From Escherichia coli (GTDB lineage: Bacteria; Pseudomonadota; Gammaproteobacteria; Enterobacterales; Enterobacteriaceae), in assembly GCF_017348835.2 (NCBI RefSeq), contig NZ_CP071375.1: DNA of 64,000 nt. One strand, given 5' to 3'. The notes below the pieces were generated by a model that did not search any database, was not told where the DNA came from, and was given only the letters and a program-made list of their open reading frames with translations. Shown here one piece after another: positions 55,262 to 64,000 of this stretch. The number at the start of each line of letters is the position of its first letter. The stretch's first letter is position 1. A program made the position numbers and the translations under genes.

Positions 55262-57511
55262 ATGGCGCGTTCCAAAACTGCTCAGCCAAAACACTCACTG
55301 CGTAAAATCGCAGTTGTAGTAGCCACAGCGGTTAGCGGCATGTCTGTTTATGCACAGGCAGCGGTTGAACCGAAAGAAGACACTATCACCGTTACCGCTG
55401 CACCTGCGCCGCAAGAAAGCGCATGGGGGCCTGCTGCAACTATTGCGGCGCGACAGTCAGCTACCGGCACTAAAACCGATACGCCGATTCAAAAAGTGCC
55501 ACAGTCTATTTCTGTTGTGACCGCCGAAGAGATGGCGCTGCATCAGCCGAAGTCGGTAAAAGAAGCGCTTAGCTACACTCCTGGCGTTGCCGTGGGAACT
55601 CGTGGCGCATCCAACACTTACGATTACCTGATCATCCGCGGATTTGCCGCTGACGGCCAAAGCCAGAACAACTATCTGAATGGCCTGAAGATGCAGGGCA
55701 ACTTCTATAACGATGCGGTTATTGACCCATATATGCTGGAGCGCGCTGAAATCATGCGTGGCCCGGTTTCCGTGCTGTATGGGAAAAGCAGCCCAGGTGG
55801 CCTGTTGAACATGGTCAGCAAGCGCCCGACCACTGAACCGTTGAAAGAAGTTCAGTTTAAGGCCGGTACTGACAGCCTGTTCCAGACCGGTTTTGACTTC
55901 AGCGATGCGCTGGATGATGACGGCGTTTACTCTTATCGTCTGACCGGTCTTGCGCGCTCTGCCAATGCCCAGCAAAAGGGCGCGGAAGAGCAGCGTTATG
56001 CCATTGCGCCAGCGTTCACCTGGCGTCCGGACGATAAAACCAATTTCACCTTCCTCTCTTACTTCCAGAACGAGCCGGAAACCGGTTATTACGGCTGGTT
56101 GCCGAAAGAGGGAACCGTTGAGCCGCTGCCGAACGGTAAGCGTCTGCCGACAGACTTTAACGAAGGGGCGAAGAACAACACCTATTCTCGTAATGAGAAG
56201 ATGATTGGCTATAGCTTCGACCACGAATTTAACGACACCTTTACCGTACGTCAGAACCTTCGCTTTGCGCAAAATAAAGTTTCGCAAAAGAGCGTATATG
56301 GCTACGGCATGTGTTCAGATCCTCTCTATTCCTCAAACCCCTCTTCGAGTCCATGTGCCAACGTGCCGCAGTCTCAATGGGGCCATACACTGACTCGTCA
56401 GTACGTTATCGATAATGAGAAGTTAGAAAACTTCTCTGTTGATACTCAGTTGCAAAGCAAATTCGCAACCGGTTCAGTGGATCACACTCTGCTGACTGGC
56501 GTTGACTTTATGCGTATGCGTAATGACATCGACTCCTGGTTCGGATATGCCGGTTCAGTTGCACCATCTGATATCTATAATTTAGACCGTAGTGACTTTG
56601 ATTTTGGCGCTCACCCAAATCCGTCTGGTCCATACCGCGTTCTGCTGAAACAGAAACAAACCGGTCTGTATGTTCAGGATCAGGCGCAGTGGGATAAAGT
56701 GCTGGTTACGCTTGGCGGTCGCTATGACTGGGCCGATCAGTCATCTTTCAACCGTGATTACGGTAATAAATCCGATCGCGATGATAAACAGTTCACCTGG
56801 CGTGGCGGTGTTAACTATCTGTTCGACAACGGCGTAACGCCTTATTTCAGCTACAGTGAATCGTTTGAACCCGCTTCGCAGACCGATGCAAACGGCGATC
56901 TGTTTGCACCTTCGAAAGGCAAACAGTATGAAGTCGGCGTGAAATATGTGCCAGAAGATCGCCCAATTGTGGTGACTGGCGCACTGTATCAGCTTACCAA
57001 AACTAATAACCTGATGGCGGATCCGAACGGTTCACTGTTCTCGGTTGAAGGCGGTGAGATTCGTGCGCGTGGCGTAGAGCTGGAAGCGAAAGCGGCACTA
57101 TCGGCGAGTGTTAACTTAGTTGGTTCTTACACCTACACCGACGCGGAATACACCACTGACACCAACTACAAAGGCAATACGCCGGCACAGGTGCCAAAAC
57201 ACATGGCTTCGCTGTGGGCTGACTATACCTTCTTTGACGGTCCGCTTTCAGGTCTGACGCTGGGCACCGGTGGTCGTTATACTGGCTCCAGCTATGGTGA
57301 TCCGGCTAACTCCTTTAAAGTGGGAAGTTATACGGTCGTGGATGCGTTAGTGCGTTATGATCTGGCGCGAGTCGGCATGGCTGGCTCCAACGTGGCGCTG
57401 CATGTTAACAACCTGTTCGATCGTGAATACGTCGCCAGCTGCTTTAACACTTATGGCTGCTTCTGGGGCGCAGAACGTCAGGTCGTTGCAACCGCAACCT
57501 TCCGTTTCTAA
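55262..57511 (+). CDS. fhuA: TonB-dependent ferrichrome outer-membrane transporter
   Basis: 749-aa ORF; signal peptide; TonB box DTITVTAA; C-terminal ...VVATATFRF. Confidence 0.95.
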   Translation: MARSKTAQPKHSLRKIAVVVATAVSGMSVYAQAAVEPKEDTITVTAAPAPQESAWGPAATIAARQSATGTKTDTPIQKVPQSISVVTAEEMALHQPKSVKEALSYTPGVAVGTRGASNTYDYLIIRGFAADGQSQNNYLNGLKMQGNFYNDAVIDPYMLERAEIMRGPVSVLYGKSSPGGLLNMVSKRPTTEPLKEVQFKAGTDSLFQTGFDFSDALDDDGVYSYRLTGLARSANAQQKGAEEQRYAIAPAFTWRPDDKTNFTFLSYFQNEPETGYYGWLPKEGTVEPLPNGKRLPTDFNEGAKNNTYSRNEKMIGYSFDHEFNDTFTVRQNLRFAQNKVSQKSVYGYGMCSDPLYSSNPSSSPCANVPQSQWGHTLTRQYVIDNEKLENFSVDTQLQSKFATGSVDHTLLTGVDFMRMRNDIDSWFGYAGSVAPSDIYNLDRSDFDFGAHPNPSGPYRVLLKQKQTGLYVQDQAQWDKVLVTLGGRYDWADQSSFNRDYGNKSDRDDKQFTWRGGVNYLFDNGVTPYFSYSESFEPASQTDANGDLFAPSKGKQYEVGVKYVPEDRPIVVTGALYQLTKTNNLMADPNGSLFSVEGGEIRARGVELEAKAALSASVNLVGSYTYTDAEYTTDTNYKGNTPAQVPKHMASLWADYTFFDGPLSGLTLGTGGRYTGSSYGDPANSFKVGSYTVVDALVRYDLARVGMAGSNVALHVNNLFDREYVASCFNTYGCFWGAERQVVATATFRF

Positions 57512-57561
57512 TTTCTCTTTTGGGGCACGGATTTCCGTGCCCGTTTCACAAGTTGGCTGTT

Positions 57562-58359
57562 ATGCAGGAATACACGAATCATTCCGATACCACTTTTGCA
57601 CTGCGTAATATCTCCTTTCGTGTGCCAGGGCGCACGCTTTTGCATCCGCTGTCGTTAACCTTTCCTGCCGGAAAAGTGACTGGTTTGATTGGTCACAACG
57701 GTTCTGGTAAATCCACGCTGTTAAAAATGTTGGGCCGTCATCAGCCGCCGTCAGAAGGTGAAATTCTTCTTGATGCCCAGCCGCTGGAAAGCTGGAGTAG
57801 CAAAGCATTCGCCCGCAAAGTGGCTTATTTGCCGCAGCAGCTTCCTCCGGCAGAAGGGATGACCGTGCGTGAACTGGTGGCGATTGGTCGTTACCCGTGG
57901 CATGGCGCGCTGGGGCGCTTTGGTGCGGCAGATCGCGAAAAAGTTGAGGAAGCTATCTCGCTGGTTGGCTTAAAACCGCTGGCGCATCGGCTGGTCGATA
58001 GTCTCTCTGGCGGTGAGCGTCAGCGGGCGTGGATCGCCATGCTGGTGGCGCAGGATAGCCGTTGTCTGTTGCTCGACGAACCGACCTCGGCGTTGGATAT
58101 CGCCCACCAGGTTGATGTGCTGGCGCTGGTGCACCGTTTAAGTCAGGAACGTGGTCTGACGGTCATTGCCGTGCTGCACGATATCAATATGGCGGCACGC
58201 TACTGTGATTATCTGGTCGCCCTGCGCGGCGGTGAAATGATTGCTCAGGGAACGCCTGCGGAAATTATGCGCGGCGAAACCCTCGAAATGATTTATGGCA
58301 TCCCGATGGGTATTTTGCCGCATCCGGCGGGTGCTGCACCTGTGAGTTTTGTTTATTGA
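57562..58359 (+). CDS. fhuC: ferric hydroxamate ABC transporter ATP-binding protein
   Basis: ATG at 57562 gives MQEYTNHSDTTFALRNISF... (265 aa); Walker A GHNGSGKST. Confidence 0.95.
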   Translation: MQEYTNHSDTTFALRNISFRVPGRTLLHPLSLTFPAGKVTGLIGHNGSGKSTLLKMLGRHQPPSEGEILLDAQPLESWSSKAFARKVAYLPQQLPPAEGMTVRELVAIGRYPWHGALGRFGAADREKVEEAISLVGLKPLAHRLVDSLSGGERQRAWIAMLVAQDSRCLLLDEPTSALDIAHQVDVLALVHRLSQERGLTVIAVLHDINMAARYCDYLVALRGGEMIAQGTPAEIMRGETLEMIYGIPMGILPHPAGAAPVSFVY

Positions 58360-59249
58360 TGAGCGGCTTACCTCTTATTTCGCGCCGTCGACTGTTAACG
58401 GCGATGGCGCTTTCTCCGTTGTTATGGCAGATGAATGCCGCCCACGCGGCGGCTATTGATCCCAATCGTATTGTGGCGCTGGAGTGGTTGCCGGTGGAAT
58501 TACTGCTGGCGCTCGGCATCGTGCCTTATGGCGTGGCGGACACCATCAACTATCGCCTGTGGGTTAGCGAACCACCGTTACTTGAATCGGTGATTGACGT
58601 CGGTTTGCGCACAGAACCTAACCTTGAACTGCTGACCGAAATGAAACCGTCGTTTATGGTCTGGTCGGCAGGATATGGCCCTTCACCAGAAATGCTGGCT
58701 CGTATTGCGCCGGGGCGCGGATTTAACTTCAGCGACGGCAAACAGCCGCTGGCGATGGCGCGTAAATCACTGACGGAAATGGCAGATTTACTTAACCTGC
58801 AAAGCGCAGCGGAAACGCATTTAGCGCAATACGAAGACTTTATCCGCAGCATGAAACCCCGCTTTGTGAAGCGTGGTGCACGCCCGTTATTGCTGACGAC
58901 GCTTATCGATCCGCGCCATATGTTGGTCTTCGGGCCAAACAGCTTGTTCCAGGAAATTCTCGATGAGTACGGCATCCCAAATGCCTGGCAAGGGGAAACC
59001 AACTTCTGGGGCAGCACCGCCGTCAGTATCGATCGTCTGGCGGCGTATAAAGATGTTGATGTGCTCTGTTTTGATCACGACAACAGCAAAGACATGGATG
59101 CGCTAATGGCAACCCCGCTGTGGCAGGCCATGCCGTTTGTCCGTACAGGGCGCTTTCAGCGCGTACCTGCAGTCTGGTTTTATGGTGCGACGCTCTCGGC
59201 AATGCACTTTGTGCGTATTCTGGATAACGCCATCGGAGGTAAAGCGTGA
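58359..59249 (+). CDS. fhuD: ferric hydroxamate periplasmic binding protein
   Basis: ATG at 58359 overlaps fhuC stop (TGATG); MSGLPLISRRRLLTAMALSPLLW (Tat-like RR signal). Confidence 0.93.
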   Translation: MSGLPLISRRRLLTAMALSPLLWQMNAAHAAAIDPNRIVALEWLPVELLLALGIVPYGVADTINYRLWVSEPPLLESVIDVGLRTEPNLELLTEMKPSFMVWSAGYGPSPEMLARIAPGRGFNFSDGKQPLAMARKSLTEMADLLNLQSAAETHLAQYEDFIRSMKPRFVKRGARPLLLTTLIDPRHMLVFGPNSLFQEILDEYGIPNAWQGETNFWGSTAVSIDRLAAYKDVDVLCFDHDNSKDMDALMATPLWQAMPFVRTGRFQRVPAVWFYGATLSAMHFVRILDNAIGGKA

Positions 59250-61228
59250 GTAAACGAATTGCGCTTTTCCCGGCGTTATTGCTGGCGCTGTTAGTGATTG
59301 TCGCTACGGCGCTCACCTGGATGAACTTCTCGCAGGCGCTGCCGCGTAGCCAGTGGGCGCAGGCTGCCTGGTCGCCGGATATTGACGTCATCGAGCAGAT
59401 GATTTTTCACTACAGCTTGTTGCCGCGTCTGGCGATTTCGCTGCTGGTGGGCGCGGGCCTGGGGCTGGTGGGCGTGCTGTTTCAGCAAGTGCTGCGTAAC
59501 CCGCTGGCGGAACCGACGACGTTGGGCGTTGCTACAGGCGCGCAACTGGGGATTACCGTCACGACGCTCTGGGCGATCCCTGGTGCGATGGCGAGCCAGT
59601 TTGCTGCGCTGGCAGGGGCTTGTGTTGTTGGCTTAATTGTCTTTGGCGTCGCGTGGGGGAAACGGCTGTCGCCGGTAACGCTGATTCTCGCGGGGCTGGT
59701 AGTGAGCCTTTATTGTGGGGCAATCAATCAATTACTGGTTATCTTCCATCATGACCAGTTGCAAAGCATGTTTCTGTGGAGCACTGGAACGCTGACGCAA
59801 ACCGACTGGGGCGGCGTTGAGCGTTTATGGCCGCAGCTGCTGGGCGGCGTGATGCTGACGTTATTGCTACTTCGCCCGTTAACCCTGATGGGGCTTGATG
59901 ATGGCGTGGCGCGCAATCTCGGGCTGGCCTTGTCGCTCGCGCGTCTGGCGGCGCTGTCGCTGGCGATTGTCATCAGTGCGCTGCTGGTGAATGCGGTAGG
60001 GATTATCGGCTTTATCGGGTTGTTCGCGCCGCTGCTGGCAAAAATGCTGGGGGCGCGGCGTCTGCTGCCACGGTTGATGCTGGCGTCGCTGATTGGGGCG
60101 CTGATCCTCTGGCTTTCCGATCAAATCATCCTCTGGCTGACTCGTGTGTGGATGGAAGTGTCCACCGGTTCGGTCACTGCGTTGATCGGTGCGCCGCTGC
60201 TACTGTGGCTGTTGCCGCGTTTACGCAGCATTAGCGCGCCGGATATGAAGGTCAACGATCGTGTCGCGGCTGAACGCCAACATGTGCTGGCGTTTGCCCT
60301 CGCGGGCGGCGTGCTGCTGTTGATGGCTGTGGTGGTGGCGCTGTCGTTTGGTCGTGATGCGCACGGCTGGACGTGGGCGAGCGGGGCGTTGCTCGATGAT
60401 TTAATGCCCTGGCGCTGGCCGCGAATTATGGCGGCGCTGTTTGCGGGCGTCATGCTGGCGGTGGCGGGCTGTATTATTCAGCGGCTGACCGGAAACCCGA
60501 TGGCAAGCCCGGAAGTGCTGGGGATTAGCTCCGGCGCGGCGTTTGGCGTGGTGTTAATGCTGTTTCTGGTACCGGGTAATGCCTTTGGCTGGCTGTTACC
60601 CGCAGGCAGTCTCGGGGCGGCGGTGACGCTGTTGATCATTATGATCGCCGCCGGACGCGGTGGATTTTCCCCACACCGTATGTTACTGGCGGGGATGGCG
60701 TTAAGTACCGCATTCACCATGCTTTTGATGATGTTGCAGGCGAGCGGTGACCCGCGAATGGCGCAAGTGCTGACCTGGATTTCCGGTTCGACCTACAACG
60801 CGACCGATGCGCAGGTCTGGCGCACCGGAATTGTGATGGTGATTTTGCTGGCGATTACCCCGCTGTGCCGCCGCTGGCTGACCATTTTACCGCTGGGTGG
60901 TGATACCGCCCGAGCCGTAGGAATGGCGCTGACGCCGACGCGAATTGCGCTGCTGCTGTTAGCGGCTTGCCTGACGGCGACCGCGACGATGACTATTGGA
61001 CCGTTGAGTTTTGTTGGTTTAATGGCACCGCATATTGCGCGGATGATGGGTTTTCGACGGACGATGCCACACATCGTAATTTCGGCGCTGGTGGGTGGTT
61101 TACTGCTGGTATTCGCTGACTGGTGTGGGCGGATGGTGCTGTTTCCATTCCAGATCCCGGCGGGGCTGCTGTCGACCTTTATCGGCGCGCCATATTTTAT
61201 CTATTTGTTGAGAAAGCAGAGCCGTTAA
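59246..61228 (+). CDS. fhuB: ferric hydroxamate ABC transporter permease (fused duplicated permease)
   Basis: 660-aa ORF with GTG start overlapping fhuD stop; two homologous halves. Confidence 0.93.
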   Translation: MSKRIALFPALLLALLVIVATALTWMNFSQALPRSQWAQAAWSPDIDVIEQMIFHYSLLPRLAISLLVGAGLGLVGVLFQQVLRNPLAEPTTLGVATGAQLGITVTTLWAIPGAMASQFAALAGACVVGLIVFGVAWGKRLSPVTLILAGLVVSLYCGAINQLLVIFHHDQLQSMFLWSTGTLTQTDWGGVERLWPQLLGGVMLTLLLLRPLTLMGLDDGVARNLGLALSLARLAALSLAIVISALLVNAVGIIGFIGLFAPLLAKMLGARRLLPRLMLASLIGALILWLSDQIILWLTRVWMEVSTGSVTALIGAPLLLWLLPRLRSISAPDMKVNDRVAAERQHVLAFALAGGVLLLMAVVVALSFGRDAHGWTWASGALLDDLMPWRWPRIMAALFAGVMLAVAGCIIQRLTGNPMASPEVLGISSGAAFGVVLMLFLVPGNAFGWLLPAGSLGAAVTLLIIMIAAGRGGFSPHRMLLAGMALSTAFTMLLMMLQASGDPRMAQVLTWISGSTYNATDAQVWRTGIVMVILLAITPLCRRWLTILPLGGDTARAVGMALTPTRIALLLLAACLTATATMTIGPLSFVGLMAPHIARMMGFRRTMPHIVISALVGGLLLVFADWCGRMVLFPFQIPAGLLSTFIGAPYFIYLLRKQSR

Positions 61229-61234
61229 TAGAAT

Positions 61235-61255
61235 GCCTCGCCCGGTGGGCGAGGC
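61235..61255. terminator. bidirectional hairpin terminator between convergent fhuB and hemL
   Basis: gcctcgccc-ggt-gggcgaggc flanked by A/T-rich sequence. Confidence 0.7.
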
Positions 61256-61262
61256 AAAATCA

Positions 61263-62543
61263 TCACAACTTCGCAAACACCCGACGTGCAGCATCGATGG
61301 TGTTATTGATATCTTCCATGCTGTGCGCCACAGACATAAAGCCCGCTTCAAACGCTGACGGTGCCAGGTAAACACCTTCATCCAGCATCATATGGAAGAA
61401 ACGCTTAAAGCGCTCGACGTCACAGGCCATCACATCCTGATAGCACGTCACGGACCCGGCGTCGGTAAAGAAGATACCGAACATACCACCGACGTGGTTA
61501 ACGACCAGCGGAATTCCGGCTTCTTCTGCCGCTTCCAGCAGACCTTCTGCCAGACGTGTTGTCAGCTCATCCAGCGTTTCGTGAACGCCCGGCTGCGCGA
61601 CTTCATTCAGACAGGCGAAACCGGCTGCCATCGCAATTGGGTTACCGGAAAGCGTACCCGCCTGATAGACCGGACCCGTCGGGGCCAGCGCATCCATTAC
61701 ATCACGACGACCACCGAATGCGCCTACCGGCATTCCACCGCCGATGATTTTTCCGAGGCAGGTTAAATCTGGCACTACGCCGTAATAATCCTGTGCGCCA
61801 GCTAGCGCTACGCGGAAACCGGTCATCACTTCATCGATGATCAGCAACGCGCCAAATTCGTCACACAGCGCACGCAGACCTGGCAGGAACTCTGGCAGCG
61901 GCGGAACACAGTTCATATTGCCTGCCACCGGCTCGACGATAATACAGGCAATCTCTTGCGGGTATTGCTCAAACGCGGCGCGTACAGAAGCCAGATCGTT
62001 ATAAGTACAGGTTAAGGTATGTTTGGCGAAATCTGCCGGAACGCCCGGCGAGTTTGGCTGGCCTAACGTGAGTGCGCCAGAACCGGCTTTTACCAGCAGG
62101 CAGTCAGCGTGACCGTGGTAACAACCTTCAAATTTAATAATTTTGTCGCGACCGGTAAAACCACGGGCCAGGCGGATGGCGCTCATGGTCGCCTCGGTGC
62201 CGGAGTTCACCATGCGCACCATATCCATGGTCGGGACCAGTTCGGTCACCAGTTGCGCCATTCTCACTTCCATTTCGGTCGGTGCACCAAAGCTTAAACC
62301 ACGCTCGGCGGCTTCAATCACGGCATTGCGGATCGCCGGATGGTTATGGCCCAGCACCATCGGCCCCCAGGAACCGACATAATCGATATAGGCTTTGCCA
62401 TCAACATCGTACAGATAAGCGCCGTCCGCTTTTTCGATAAACAGTGGAGTGCCGCCCACGCCAGTAAAGGCGCGAACAGGGGAGTTCACACCGCCAGGGA
62501 TCAGCTCGCGCGCTGCGCTGTAAAGATTTTCAGACTTACTCAT
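61263..62543 (-). CDS. hemL: glutamate-1-semialdehyde 2,1-aminomutase
   Basis: 426-aa [32 protein letters not shown]-dependent aminotransferase class III. Confidence 0.95.
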
Positions 62544-62749
62544 GGAGGGTTCCTGATTCGTAGAAAAAGTGAATGGCTGCTATTCTATGTTATTCATAAC
62601 AAGTTAAATACTCGTCAAACATCAGGCTGCTTGTACTGGTGCAATCCTGAGTTCTTAGAGTATAAAAGTTTTGTGCATTTGAAACATTACGCTTTGCAAA
62701 GGATTTTCATGGAACGTGCGAGTAAAATGCCGTCATCTTATTTGTATGA

Positions 62750-64000
<1,251 letters not shown>

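Follow-up and report, generated by a model that had tools for sequence, protein, structure and literature searches.

The fhuA gene of an Escherichia coli genome carries a loop-bearing block deeply diverged from K-12 and is probably an old allele class placed by intragenic recombination

Phages T1, T5 and phi80, colicin M, microcin J25 and albomycin all enter by way of FhuA, and, to our knowledge, almost all structural and genetic work on this protein uses the K-12 allele. In the window, the whole stretch of 64,000 nucleotides of E. coli DNA that was analysed, an open reading frame at 55262–57511 on the plus strand was identified as fhuA. Its product of 749 amino acids plus stop scored 1452.4 bits against the FhuA equivalog model NCBIfam NF007465 (cut-off 803), with residues 1–749 covered, contained the Pfam domains PF07715 (Plug) and PF00593 (TonB_dep_Rec_b-barrel), and matched PDB FhuA chains at E = 0. 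The identical gene of the pig isolate PE164 is annotated as fhuA (WP_089553304.1); the window and PE164 are 100% identical over 49262–63511 and differ by 1 mismatch in the 49,973 bases of 1–49973. The genes stand in the order fhuACDB downstream of mrcB, as in the K-12 locus mrcB-fhuACDB:

52508–55042, plus strand: mrcB, the upstream neighbour (PE164 annotation; 98.1% identity to K-12; dS 0.082)
55262–57511, plus strand: fhuA coding sequence, ferrichrome outer-membrane transporter and phage/colicin receptor (open reading frame, NF007465, Pfam, PDB and PE164 annotation)
57562–61228, plus strand: fhuC, fhuD and fhuB, the remaining operon (PE164 annotation; 96.5–98.0% identity to K-12; dS 0.07–0.14)

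A pseudogene or an assembly artefact was ruled out, since the open reading frame is intact, the PE164 sequence agrees and an allele at least 99% identical occurs in 53 genomes.

Compared with FhuA of MG1655, the window protein is identical at 673 of 750 aligned positions (89.7%) and different at 77, all of which lie between mature residues 77 and 600, residue 77 being the first. A preliminary description of this DNA had singled out segments of FhuA within 56290–56800 as differing from K-12. The pairwise alignment bore this out: both peptides are present, neither is identical to K-12, and 54 of the 77 differences fall inside this range. The peptide at nucleotides 56306–56440 shares 23 of 45 aligned positions with K-12 and carries a 3-aa insertion; the one at nucleotides 56549–56653 shares 18 of 36 and carries a 1-aa deletion. 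The range covers the divergent core of the gene, and the whole block, at about 55500–57200, extends beyond it. The changed loops are as follows:

56312–56386, plus strand: L4 (K-12 mature residues 318–339), 15 of 25 positions changed, counting a 3-aa insertion within the C318–C329 disulfide loop
56543–56632, plus strand: L5 (K-12 mature residues 394–419), 16 substitutions and a 1-aa deletion, making 17 changes over 30 residues
56741–56776, plus strand: L6, tip of the beta11–beta12 hairpin, 8 substitutions (E459S, L461F, V464D, A465Y, T467N, T468K, D469S, K470D)
56870–56911, plus strand: L7 (K-12 mature residues 502–515), 7 of 14 residues changed, the tip residue D509N among them
57020–57040, plus strand: L8 (K-12 mature residues 552–558), E554N and F557L

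The insertion in L4 sits after mature P321, and both cysteines of the loop are retained. Loop limits were taken from an AlphaFold2 model built on a 33-sequence alignment, a model of low confidence (mean pLDDT 51, cork unmodelled) of which we used only the strand limits of residues 300–660 (block-mean pLDDT about 54–87, mostly >60). These limits agree with the loop deletions given in PMC10373560 (L4 318–339, L5 394–419, L8 552–558). In a separate structural study, EL7 comprises Glu501–Ser516 with Asp509 at its tip, and Phe557 is the tip residue of EL8 (PMC9586334).

Most of the differences face outwards, as had been proposed. Sixty-three of the 77 lie in extracellular loops (L4, L5, L6, L7 and L8; 44 differences) or in outer strand halves (19), the remainder being distributed over inner strand halves (8), the cork (4), a periplasmic turn (1) and the unresolved beta1–beta2 stretch (1). 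Set against inner strand halves together with periplasmic turns, loops and outer strand halves were enriched in changes (odds ratio 4.9, p = 1.2e-6). The changes were not confined to buried strands; all eight in the inner halves were conservative, as were all four among the 160 cork residues. No differences from K-12 were seen in L3, L10 or L11 over the 750-position alignment.

The features needed for transport were retained:

55379–55393, plus strand: TonB box, mature residues 7–11 (DTITV), the same as in K-12 (mature 5–12 read KEDTITVT in both)
56084–56179, plus strand: L3, holding the ferrichrome-binding residues Y244 and W246, 0 of 32 residues different, within an island of 96–98% nucleotide identity
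57416–57478, plus strand: L11 with the C692–C698 disulfide, 0 of 21 residues different, with C692, F693, Y696 and C698 kept

The residues that we take, from the 1998 FhuA structures, to form the ferrichrome pocket (R81, G99, Q100, F115, Y116, Y244, W246, Y313, Y315, F391 and F693) are all as in K-12. Two of them, Y244 and W246, have been described as ferrichrome-binding sites (PMC10373560), and a sliding comparison over 56021–56245 gave 96–97% nucleotide identity to K-12. The signal peptide and the four cysteines, which make up both disulfides, are also the same in the two proteins. Altogether, the comparison shows that the predicted transport machinery (signal peptide, TonB box, cork, pocket, L3, L10, L11 and disulfides) is kept as in K-12, and that the predicted outward-facing surface (L4, L5, the L6 tip, L7 and L8) is a different loop set. 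Import of ferrichrome and albomycin via TonB would still be expected of the window protein.

Divergence at the nucleotide level reached much further than the protein comparison suggests. Nucleotide identity to K-12 is 86.2% for fhuA, versus 96.5–98.1% for mrcB, fhuC, fhuD and fhuB, and it falls from 98–100% at the ends of the gene to 60–80% across L4–L8. Two nested intervals describe the divergence:

55500–57200, plus strand: divergent block relative to K-12, with approximate, intragenic recombination boundaries (identity 60–92% inside, 99–100% before and after)
56251–57150, plus strand: central part of this block, 74.8% identical to K-12 in nucleotides and thus no nearer to K-12 than to other genera

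Over 56251–57150, Citrobacter species are 78–79.6% identical to the window, Salmonella arizonae is 73.9% and Escherichia sp. E1V33 90.2% identical. Silent sites gave the clearest measure. Relative to K-12, dS is 0.82 for codons 81–630 and 0.07 for the ends of fhuA (Fisher p = 1e-23 for silent differences in these codons versus the gene ends), against a background of 0.07–0.14 in mrcB, fhuC, fhuD, fhuB and hrpB. For codons 331–630, dS reaches 1.57 with a dN of 0.156, and when only the barrel strands of these codons are counted the values are 0.92 and 0.08. Deep divergence therefore reaches the barrel strands as well, where it is mostly silent, and the core is conserved at the protein level only. 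The view that barrel core and TonB box are conserved consequently holds for the protein, in which the TonB box is identical, and fails for the silent sites of the barrel. These data show that the loop-bearing block, of ~1.7 kb, has a silent divergence ~10-fold that of the flanking genes, and that clustered point mutations of recent date do not account for the difference.

The block is itself a mosaic. Along the gene the best-matching allele alternates among B1.H1.1, Rb-23, E1V33, E. whittamii, K-12 and O170:H18, and the segment 55501–56020 is at least 99% identical in 54 complete genomes and at most 94.4% identical in all others. Since the ends of the block are intragenic and the nearest relative switches every few hundred bases, the pattern points to repeated intragenic homologous recombination of long-separated alleles. 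The preliminary description had seen in the loop differences the pattern expected of diversifying selection, which would imply that such selection acted on a K-12-like gene. This reading was not supported, given a dS of 1.57 over codons 331–630 and a dN/dS that is never near 1 where it can be measured; because dS within the block is at the between-genus level or saturated, an old allele class combined with homologous recombination fits the data, and diversifying selection fits them poorly. We consider it very likely, in a judgement that covers our explanation as a whole, that the fhuA gene of the window is an old allele class placed here by intragenic recombination.

An alternative FhuA allele type, and the phenomenon of loop hotspots and recombination, were already known. 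Wang, Chen, Zhu, White and Koster (2018) divided FhuA into clusters E1–E4 with hotspots at the loop tips (bioRxiv 10.1101/320069). In that scheme, E2 is marked by an L4 insertion relative to E1/S1, E3 by shortened L4 and L5 and lengthened L6 and L7, and E4 by insertions in L3 and L10 and a deletion in L4 (bioRxiv 10.1101/320069). The predicted window protein has the E2 mark, a 3-aa insertion in L4, and its remaining loops lack any further indel by which clusters are defined. By alignment, the E3 and E4 marks are absent from it and present in the E3-like protein of APEC O78 (729 aa) and the E4-like protein of LP5-1 (731 aa), respectively. Judged by these features, the window allele matches cluster E2. 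Serotype O145:H28 was among those analysed by Wang et al. (bioRxiv 10.1101/320069), and the O145:H28 genomes in our collection carry an allele 99.6% identical to that of the window. Within its family, the window allele has the L4 tip SSNPSSSPCANV, not TKDQEALKASPCLSI, and its cork-coding segment is found in only 54 complete genomes. Of 5,424 complete E. coli genomes, 53 have an allele at least 99% identical, O145:H28, 042, IAI39 and CE10 among them, and about 20% carry the family, taken as an identity of at least 80% over the core block, frequencies that come from a collection weighted to clinical and outbreak strains and are not population estimates.

The same loop types were found beyond Escherichia. 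Among 68 species-representative loci, picked with peptide patterns from the window allele and hence giving frequencies that are not population estimates, 33 had a window-like L4 and 23 a K-12-like one, which made the type that K-12 lacks somewhat the commoner in this panel, and L5 co-varied with L4 (locus L019, with an internal stop in its fhuA, was left out of the protein alignment). Citrobacter, Enterobacter, Leclercia and further genera have window-type L4 and L5; the K-12 type occurs in Salmonella and also in different species of these same genera. Seven enterobacterial genera or more contain both types. In the loops, amino-acid identity is 78.6% when sequences of one type are compared between genera, versus 56.7% when the two types are compared within a genus; for the latter comparison, nucleotide identity of the strands is 81.7%, which equals the between-genus level. 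Unlike loop type, flanking sequence clusters by genus. The FhuA proteins of C. sedlakii, C. amalonaticus, Enterobacter vonholyi, Leclercia sp. and other Enterobacteriaceae have an L4 and L5 nearly as in the window, at an overall protein identity of 90–93%. Their silent sites are saturated relative to the window (dS 1.3–2.3) and their flanking gene parts follow the genus; they are old relatives and not recent donors.

Between the two classes dS is 1.5, versus 0.34–0.39 within a class between Escherichia species. Together, the panel and the comparisons of silent sites display the pattern of a long-lived trans-species polymorphism: classes common to several genera, a divergence between classes that exceeds that between species, and a divergence peak that decays into the flanks. 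We propose tentatively, and with somewhat less than even confidence, a two-state FhuA dimorphism in which L4 and L5 are inherited together with L6–L8, which predates the splits between genera and which has been kept by phages and bacteriocins that dock to one form. As part of our main explanation, we infer from the pattern that both types are kept in populations by balancing, frequency-dependent selection, each escaping the enemies adapted to the other; sequences exchanged between genera long ago, and diverged since, would produce similar numbers. The genera of the proposed dimorphism are Escherichia, Citrobacter, Enterobacter, Leclercia, Lelliottia, Phytobacter and Buttiauxella. Clusters common to Escherichia and Salmonella were reported previously (Wang et al. 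2018, bioRxiv 10.1101/320069); the breadth, the silent-site age and the coupling of L4 and L5 go somewhat beyond those clusters.

Within an allele type, the loops have scarcely changed. The window allele and that of E. coli Rb-23, which is of the same type, differ by a dS of 0.16 and a dN of 0.003 (dN/dS about 0.02), the window allele and that of Escherichia sp. E1V33 by 0.39 and 0.033, and the K-12 and E. whittamii alleles by 0.34 and 0.006. Overall, dN/dS within an allele type is 0.02–0.17, and the loops within a type are under strong purifying selection. This conservation bears on the possibility that the loops are weakly constrained and have drifted neutrally, hitch-hiking in a recombination hotspot with neither selection for diversity nor functional effect. 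Such drift would be in keeping with the tolerance of loop deletion for transport and for much phage binding. We nevertheless regard it as unlikely, since dN within a type is only 0.003 at a dS of 0.16, weak constraint would not predict a loop identity of 78.6% between genera for the same type, and two discrete types with co-varying L4 and L5 persist in at least seven genera.

Recent diversifying selection, in which phages or bacteriocins would have driven point mutations in the loops of a K-12-like fhuA, could account for the strong enrichment of amino-acid changes in exposed loops, and fhuA has been reported as positively selected in E. coli (Chen 2006; Petersen 2007; both quoted by later literature). 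It is very improbable on our data. Silent divergence in the same block is 0.8–1.6 or saturated, versus 0.07–0.14 in neighbour genes; pairwise dN/dS is at most 0.29 in every 30-codon window with measurable dS; the loops are nearly invariant within a type across dS of 0.16–0.39; and other genera carry the same loop sequences. No dN/dS above 1 was found at variable sites, the ratio being undefined in L4 and L5, where silent sites are saturated relative to K-12; this saturation leaves room for past episodes of positive selection in the loops. Recombination, rather than selection on point mutations, has been placed behind the diversity of fhuA and other outer-membrane protein genes, and the positive-selection signal has since been reread in these terms (bioRxiv 10.1101/320069; bioRxiv 10.1101/2021.09.21.461324).

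That the loop-coding block was recently imported from a different genus, for example Citrobacter or Enterobacter, is very improbable and was rejected on nucleotide identity and dS. The window L4 and L5 do match C. sedlakii, C. amalonaticus and Enterobacter vonholyi at 41–42 of 45 and 33–34 of 39 positions, far above K-12, and the core block is slightly closer in nucleotide identity to Citrobacter (78–79.6%) than to K-12 (74.8%). Among representatives of 100,044 species, however, none outside Escherichia is more than 80% identical to the block in nucleotides, and dS values of 1.3–2.3 separate the window from Citrobacter and Enterobacter, at least as much as in the flanks. The nearest relative, Escherichia sp. 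E1V33, has diverged evenly along the gene and to the degree usual between species (dS 0.26–0.39).

An old allele class with its own loop set would offer a different docking surface to FhuA-dependent phages, among them T5 through pb5, T1 and phi80, and probably also to colicin M. In K-12, 19 FhuA residues make 27 hydrogen bonds to T5 pb5 (PMC9586334 SI Fig. S5A). Eleven of these 19, which carry 17 of the 27 bonds, are replaced in the window protein, and an altered phage sensitivity of the allele is therefore plausible. According to published work, the FhuA–pb5 interface withstands point changes as well as the deletion of any single loop except L8, so T5 might still bind the window protein. T1 and phi80 depend on L4 and/or L8, according to PMC10373560. 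A literature search for experiments in which natural classes of FhuA allele were challenged with phages or colicins found none, and Wang et al. noted that the effect of these classes on phages and colicins remains to be tested (bioRxiv 10.1101/320069). Residue-level contacts of microcin J25 with FhuA were not found in the literature text searched; for microcin J25 and colicin M, the sole observation is that the pocket floor is conserved in the window protein.

The alternative loop set is carried by ~1 in 5 complete E. coli genomes of the collection, among them Shiga-toxin strains of O145:H28, the enteroaggregative strain 042, IAI39 and CE10. Predictions of host range, cocktails of phages and siderophore-antibiotic designs that rely on K-12 FhuA may therefore not transfer to such strains. 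The practical value of the present analysis lies in the residue-level prediction for T5 pb5 and not in discovery.

The closest known system is K-12 FhuA (cluster E1; 1BY3, 2FCP, 1QFG, 8A8C and 8B14), encoded by the same gene at the same locus, from which the window protein differs by an L4 longer by 3 aa, an L5 shorter by 1 aa, and a reshaped L6 tip, L7 and L8. Like fhuA, the mosaic outer-membrane protein genes ompC, ompF, ompA and lamB of E. coli combine a conserved barrel with variable loop tips, and in these genes the hypervariable regions at the loop tips coincide with phage-binding sites and are reassorted by local recombination (bioRxiv 10.1101/2021.09.21.461324). Unlike their products, FhuA is a 22-strand TonB-dependent transporter with a cork, whose variable loops form a ligand pocket with a floor that must stay constant.

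By every sequence test, the following ORF is identified as FhuA.

55262–57511, plus strand: fhuA, ORF with a 749-aa product

The product scored 1452 bits against a cut-off of 803 for the NCBIfam FhuA equivalog, carries both the Pfam Plug and TonB-dependent barrel domains, and is matched by all solved E. coli FhuA chains (E = 0). The surrounding order, mrcB-fhuA-fhuC-fhuD-fhuB, is the usual one. Pig isolate PE164 (NZ_CP114128.1) is 100% identical to window positions 49262–63511 and differs by one base in 49,973 over positions 1–49973; its annotation of the same gene is fhuA (WP_089553304.1).

Nucleotide identity to K-12 is 86.2% for fhuA versus 96.5–98.1% for the flanking genes, and the divergence forms a block with both ends inside fhuA.

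Nucleotide identity to K-12 along fhuA
Up to about 55500: 99–100%
55500–56020: about 90%
About 56020–56250 (L3 island): 96–97%
56250–57100: 60–80%
Beyond about 57200: 98–100%

G+C content is 0.46–0.49 in the divergent core (56200–56950) and falls to 0.42 in the mrcB–fhuA spacer (55001–55299), versus 0.52–0.60 in neighbouring sequence. Just 3' of fhuA, identity drops briefly to 90–94% within fhuC (57590–57814), possibly a small recombination tract of its own. The hrpB 3' end and hrpB–mrcB spacer (52058–52495) show 90–92% identity versus 96–100% around them.

The preliminary description had proposed that FhuA loop segments at 56290–56800 differ from K-12. Both quoted peptides were found: the first (nt 56306–56440) shares 23 of 45 residues with aligned K-12 and has a 3-aa insertion, and the second (nt 56549–56653) shares 18 of 36 and has a 1-aa deletion. 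Across the MG1655 FhuA alignment, 673 of 750 positions match and 77 differ, all within mature residues 77–600 and 54 of them within 56290–56800. The comparison with K-12 was therefore correct, and on mapping the changes were not mainly buried.

Location of the 77 amino-acid differences from K-12
Extracellular loops: 44 (L4 15, L5 17 with the deletion counted, L7 7, L6 2, L8 2, L9 1, L2 1)
Outer strand halves: 19
Inner strand halves: 8, all conservative (V/I, I/L, E/Q, N/Q)
Cork: 4
Periplasmic turn T4: 1
Unresolved beta1–beta2 stretch: 1
L3, L10, L11: 0

Differences are enriched on the outside (odds ratio 4.9, p = 1.2e-6), with loop limits that depend on a weak AlphaFold2 model cross-checked against the literature. 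Strand limits came from this model, whose mean pLDDT is 51 overall with the cork unmodelled; over residues 300–660 the block means are about 54–87, mostly above 60. Gaps between model strands reproduce the published loop deletions (L3 247–273, L4 318–339, L5 394–419, L8 552–558, L10 640–654, L11 689–701; PMC10373560 Table S1) and also agree with EL7 501–516 and EL8 546–564 (PMC9586334). The TonB box, Y696 and all four cysteines are the same as in K-12. So are all the residues lining the ferrichrome pocket (R81, G99, Q100, F115, Y116, Y244, W246, Y313, Y315, F391 and F693). These comparisons show an intact FhuA in which the transport parts are K-12-like and the outward surface is replaced.

Silent divergence from K-12 was then estimated by codon range.

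Divergence from K-12 (Nei–Gojobori; Jukes–Cantor-corrected dS above about 1 is imprecise)
mrcB, fhuC, fhuD, fhuB, hrpB: dS 0.07–0.14 (highest in hrpB, 0.14)
fhuA ends: dS 0.07
fhuA codons 81–630: dS 0.82
fhuA codons 331–630: dS 1.57, dN 0.156
Strands only, codons 331–630: dS 0.92, dN 0.08

The centre of fhuA differs from its ends with a Fisher p of 1e-23. Since dS is high in this centre, strands included, the barrel core is kept as protein only, and its DNA has diverged from the K-12 sequence to the degree seen between genera. The suggestion that barrel core and TonB box are conserved thus holds for the TonB box and at the protein level, but not for the barrel DNA. The diversifying selection on exposed loops that was also proposed there is disfavoured as a recent process acting on a K-12-like fhuA: a dS of 0.82–1.57, with dN/dS at most 0.29 in 30-codon windows wherever dS is measurable, is not its expected trace.

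Within E. coli, we searched 5,426 complete genomes, a set that is not a random sample of the species. Whole fhuA was at least 99% identical in 53, including O145:H28 Shiga-toxin strains, 042, IAI39 and CE10, so the allele belongs to phylogroups D, E and F. Identity was 95–99% in 630 genomes, 90–95% in 483, 80–90% in 3,695 (the K-12-like majority) and 60–80% in 563. The core block alone (56251–57150, the most divergent part) was at least 80% identical in 1,093 of 5,423 genomes (about 20%), which we call its family. O170:H18 and B1.H1.1 belong to this family with another L4 tip (TKDQEALKA...). Rb-23 encodes an almost identical FhuA from core-block DNA that is only 96.6% identical; for codons 331–630, dS is 0.16 and dN 0.003. 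Against Escherichia sp. E1V33, dS is 0.39 and dN 0.033. Selection inside the family is purifying, loops included.

The window fhuA is a fine-scale mosaic. Its closest allele changes every 100–500 bases, in the order B1.H1.1, Rb-23, E1V33 or E. whittamii, K-12, and O170:H18 or Rb-23. Only 54 genomes match segment 55501–56020 at 99% identity or above, and every other genome stays at 94.4% or below. In Rb-23 (NZ_AP025677.1, locus L072, 1–1292), genes for a fimbrial usher and another fimbrial protein stand upstream of fhuA in place of mrcB, a sign of rearrangement or insertion at its 5' boundary. A few fhuA-like matches are plasmid-borne (3 to 5 places), some E. coli genomes have matches in two places, and one weak match (H100) is annotated merely as a TonB-dependent siderophore receptor.

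Relatives beyond E. coli were sought in one genome each of 100,044 species. No recent foreign donor of the core block was found in this panel: nucleotide identity was 90.2% to Escherichia sp. E1V33, 78–79.6% to Citrobacter species, 74.8% to K-12 and 73.9% to Salmonella arizonae, and dS to Citrobacter and Enterobacter was 1.3–2.3. The scan, fished with peptides of the window allele, gave 68 loci, of which 33 have a window-like and 23 a K-12-like L4, and L5 type tracks L4 type. At protein level, loops nearly the same as those of the window allele (L4 41–42/45, L5 33–34/39 positions) occur in C. sedlakii, C. amalonaticus, Enterobacter vonholyi and Leclercia sp., the K-12 loops in E. whittamii, Salmonella arizonae, Enterobacter asburiae, Leclercia adecarboxylata and others. 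Both types are found inside Escherichia, Citrobacter, Enterobacter, Leclercia, Lelliottia, Phytobacter and Buttiauxella. In a 17-sequence panel, loop amino-acid identity was 78.6% for the same type between genera versus 56.7% for the other type within a genus; strand nucleotide identity was 82.6% versus 81.7%, rising to 90.3% when both type and genus were shared. Flanking parts of fhuA group by genus regardless of type (88–90% within, 82% between genera). Thus the two loop sets are old and discrete, carried by a coding block with its own history. To judge from the pattern, phage and bacteriocin pressure may maintain both types; former transfers between genera could alternatively lie behind it.

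As judged from sequence, this FhuA would still import ferrichrome and albomycin via TonB and would present a different docking surface. The T5 receptor-binding protein pb5 makes 27 hydrogen bonds to 19 FhuA residues (PMC9586334 SI Fig. S5A). Eleven of these 19 are replaced (Y325S, K327S, K344Q, D394A, D395G, N419P, A465Y, T467N, V506T, E554N, F557L); they carry 17 of the 27 bonds, 10 of the 17 via side chains now gone. However, the large pb5 interface tolerates point changes and single-loop deletions except L8, which argues against a strong prediction for T5. Within L4, the disulfide loop has three more residues than that of K-12. T1 requires L4, and phi80 requires L8 and partly L4 (PMC10373560). 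D509 (EL7 tip) and F557 (EL8 tip), which shift upon binding of the T5 exclusion protein Llp (PMC9586334), are both altered. No experiment with this class of allele turned up in a literature search; Wang et al. (bioRxiv 10.1101/320069) state that such an experiment is still to be done.

Pseudogenes of fhuA with an internal stop were seen in the K-12-derived mouse-gut isolate PG20180175 (locus L001, 6001–8244) and in Escherichia sp. MOD1-EC7003 (locus L019, 1501–3741), the first by its annotation and the second on translation. Receptor loss is another known path to phage resistance. About 10 kb from fhuA, a yad-type chaperone-usher fimbrial operon (37719–44700) adjoining folK is far from K-12 yadN-yadC: only usher and chaperone align (67–71% nucleotide identity), megablast gave no match, and it is another surface structure whose allele has apparently been replaced.

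The loop divergence of FhuA is real but already known, and both RefSeq and familiar reference strains contain the window allele. Published work (Wang et al., bioRxiv 10.1101/320069, and bioRxiv 10.1101/2021.09.21.461324) already covers the division of E. coli FhuA into four clusters, hotspots at the L3–L7 and L10 tips, conservation of cork, TonB box and strands, clusters common to Escherichia and Salmonella, and the attribution to local recombination of signals once read as positive selection. What we add is evidence from silent sites for an old block, a residue-by-residue overlap with the T5 interface, the spread of the two types over seven genera and the coupling of L4 with L5; these are modest extensions. 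In the published scheme, K-12 FhuA is cluster E1; the alleles of APEC O78 (729 aa; L4 and L5 shorter, L6 and L7 longer) and LP5-1 (731 aa; insertion in L3, deletion in L4) match the descriptions of E3 and E4, respectively; and the window allele fits cluster E2, as its L4 carries an insertion when compared with E1 and it shows neither the E3 nor the E4 marks.
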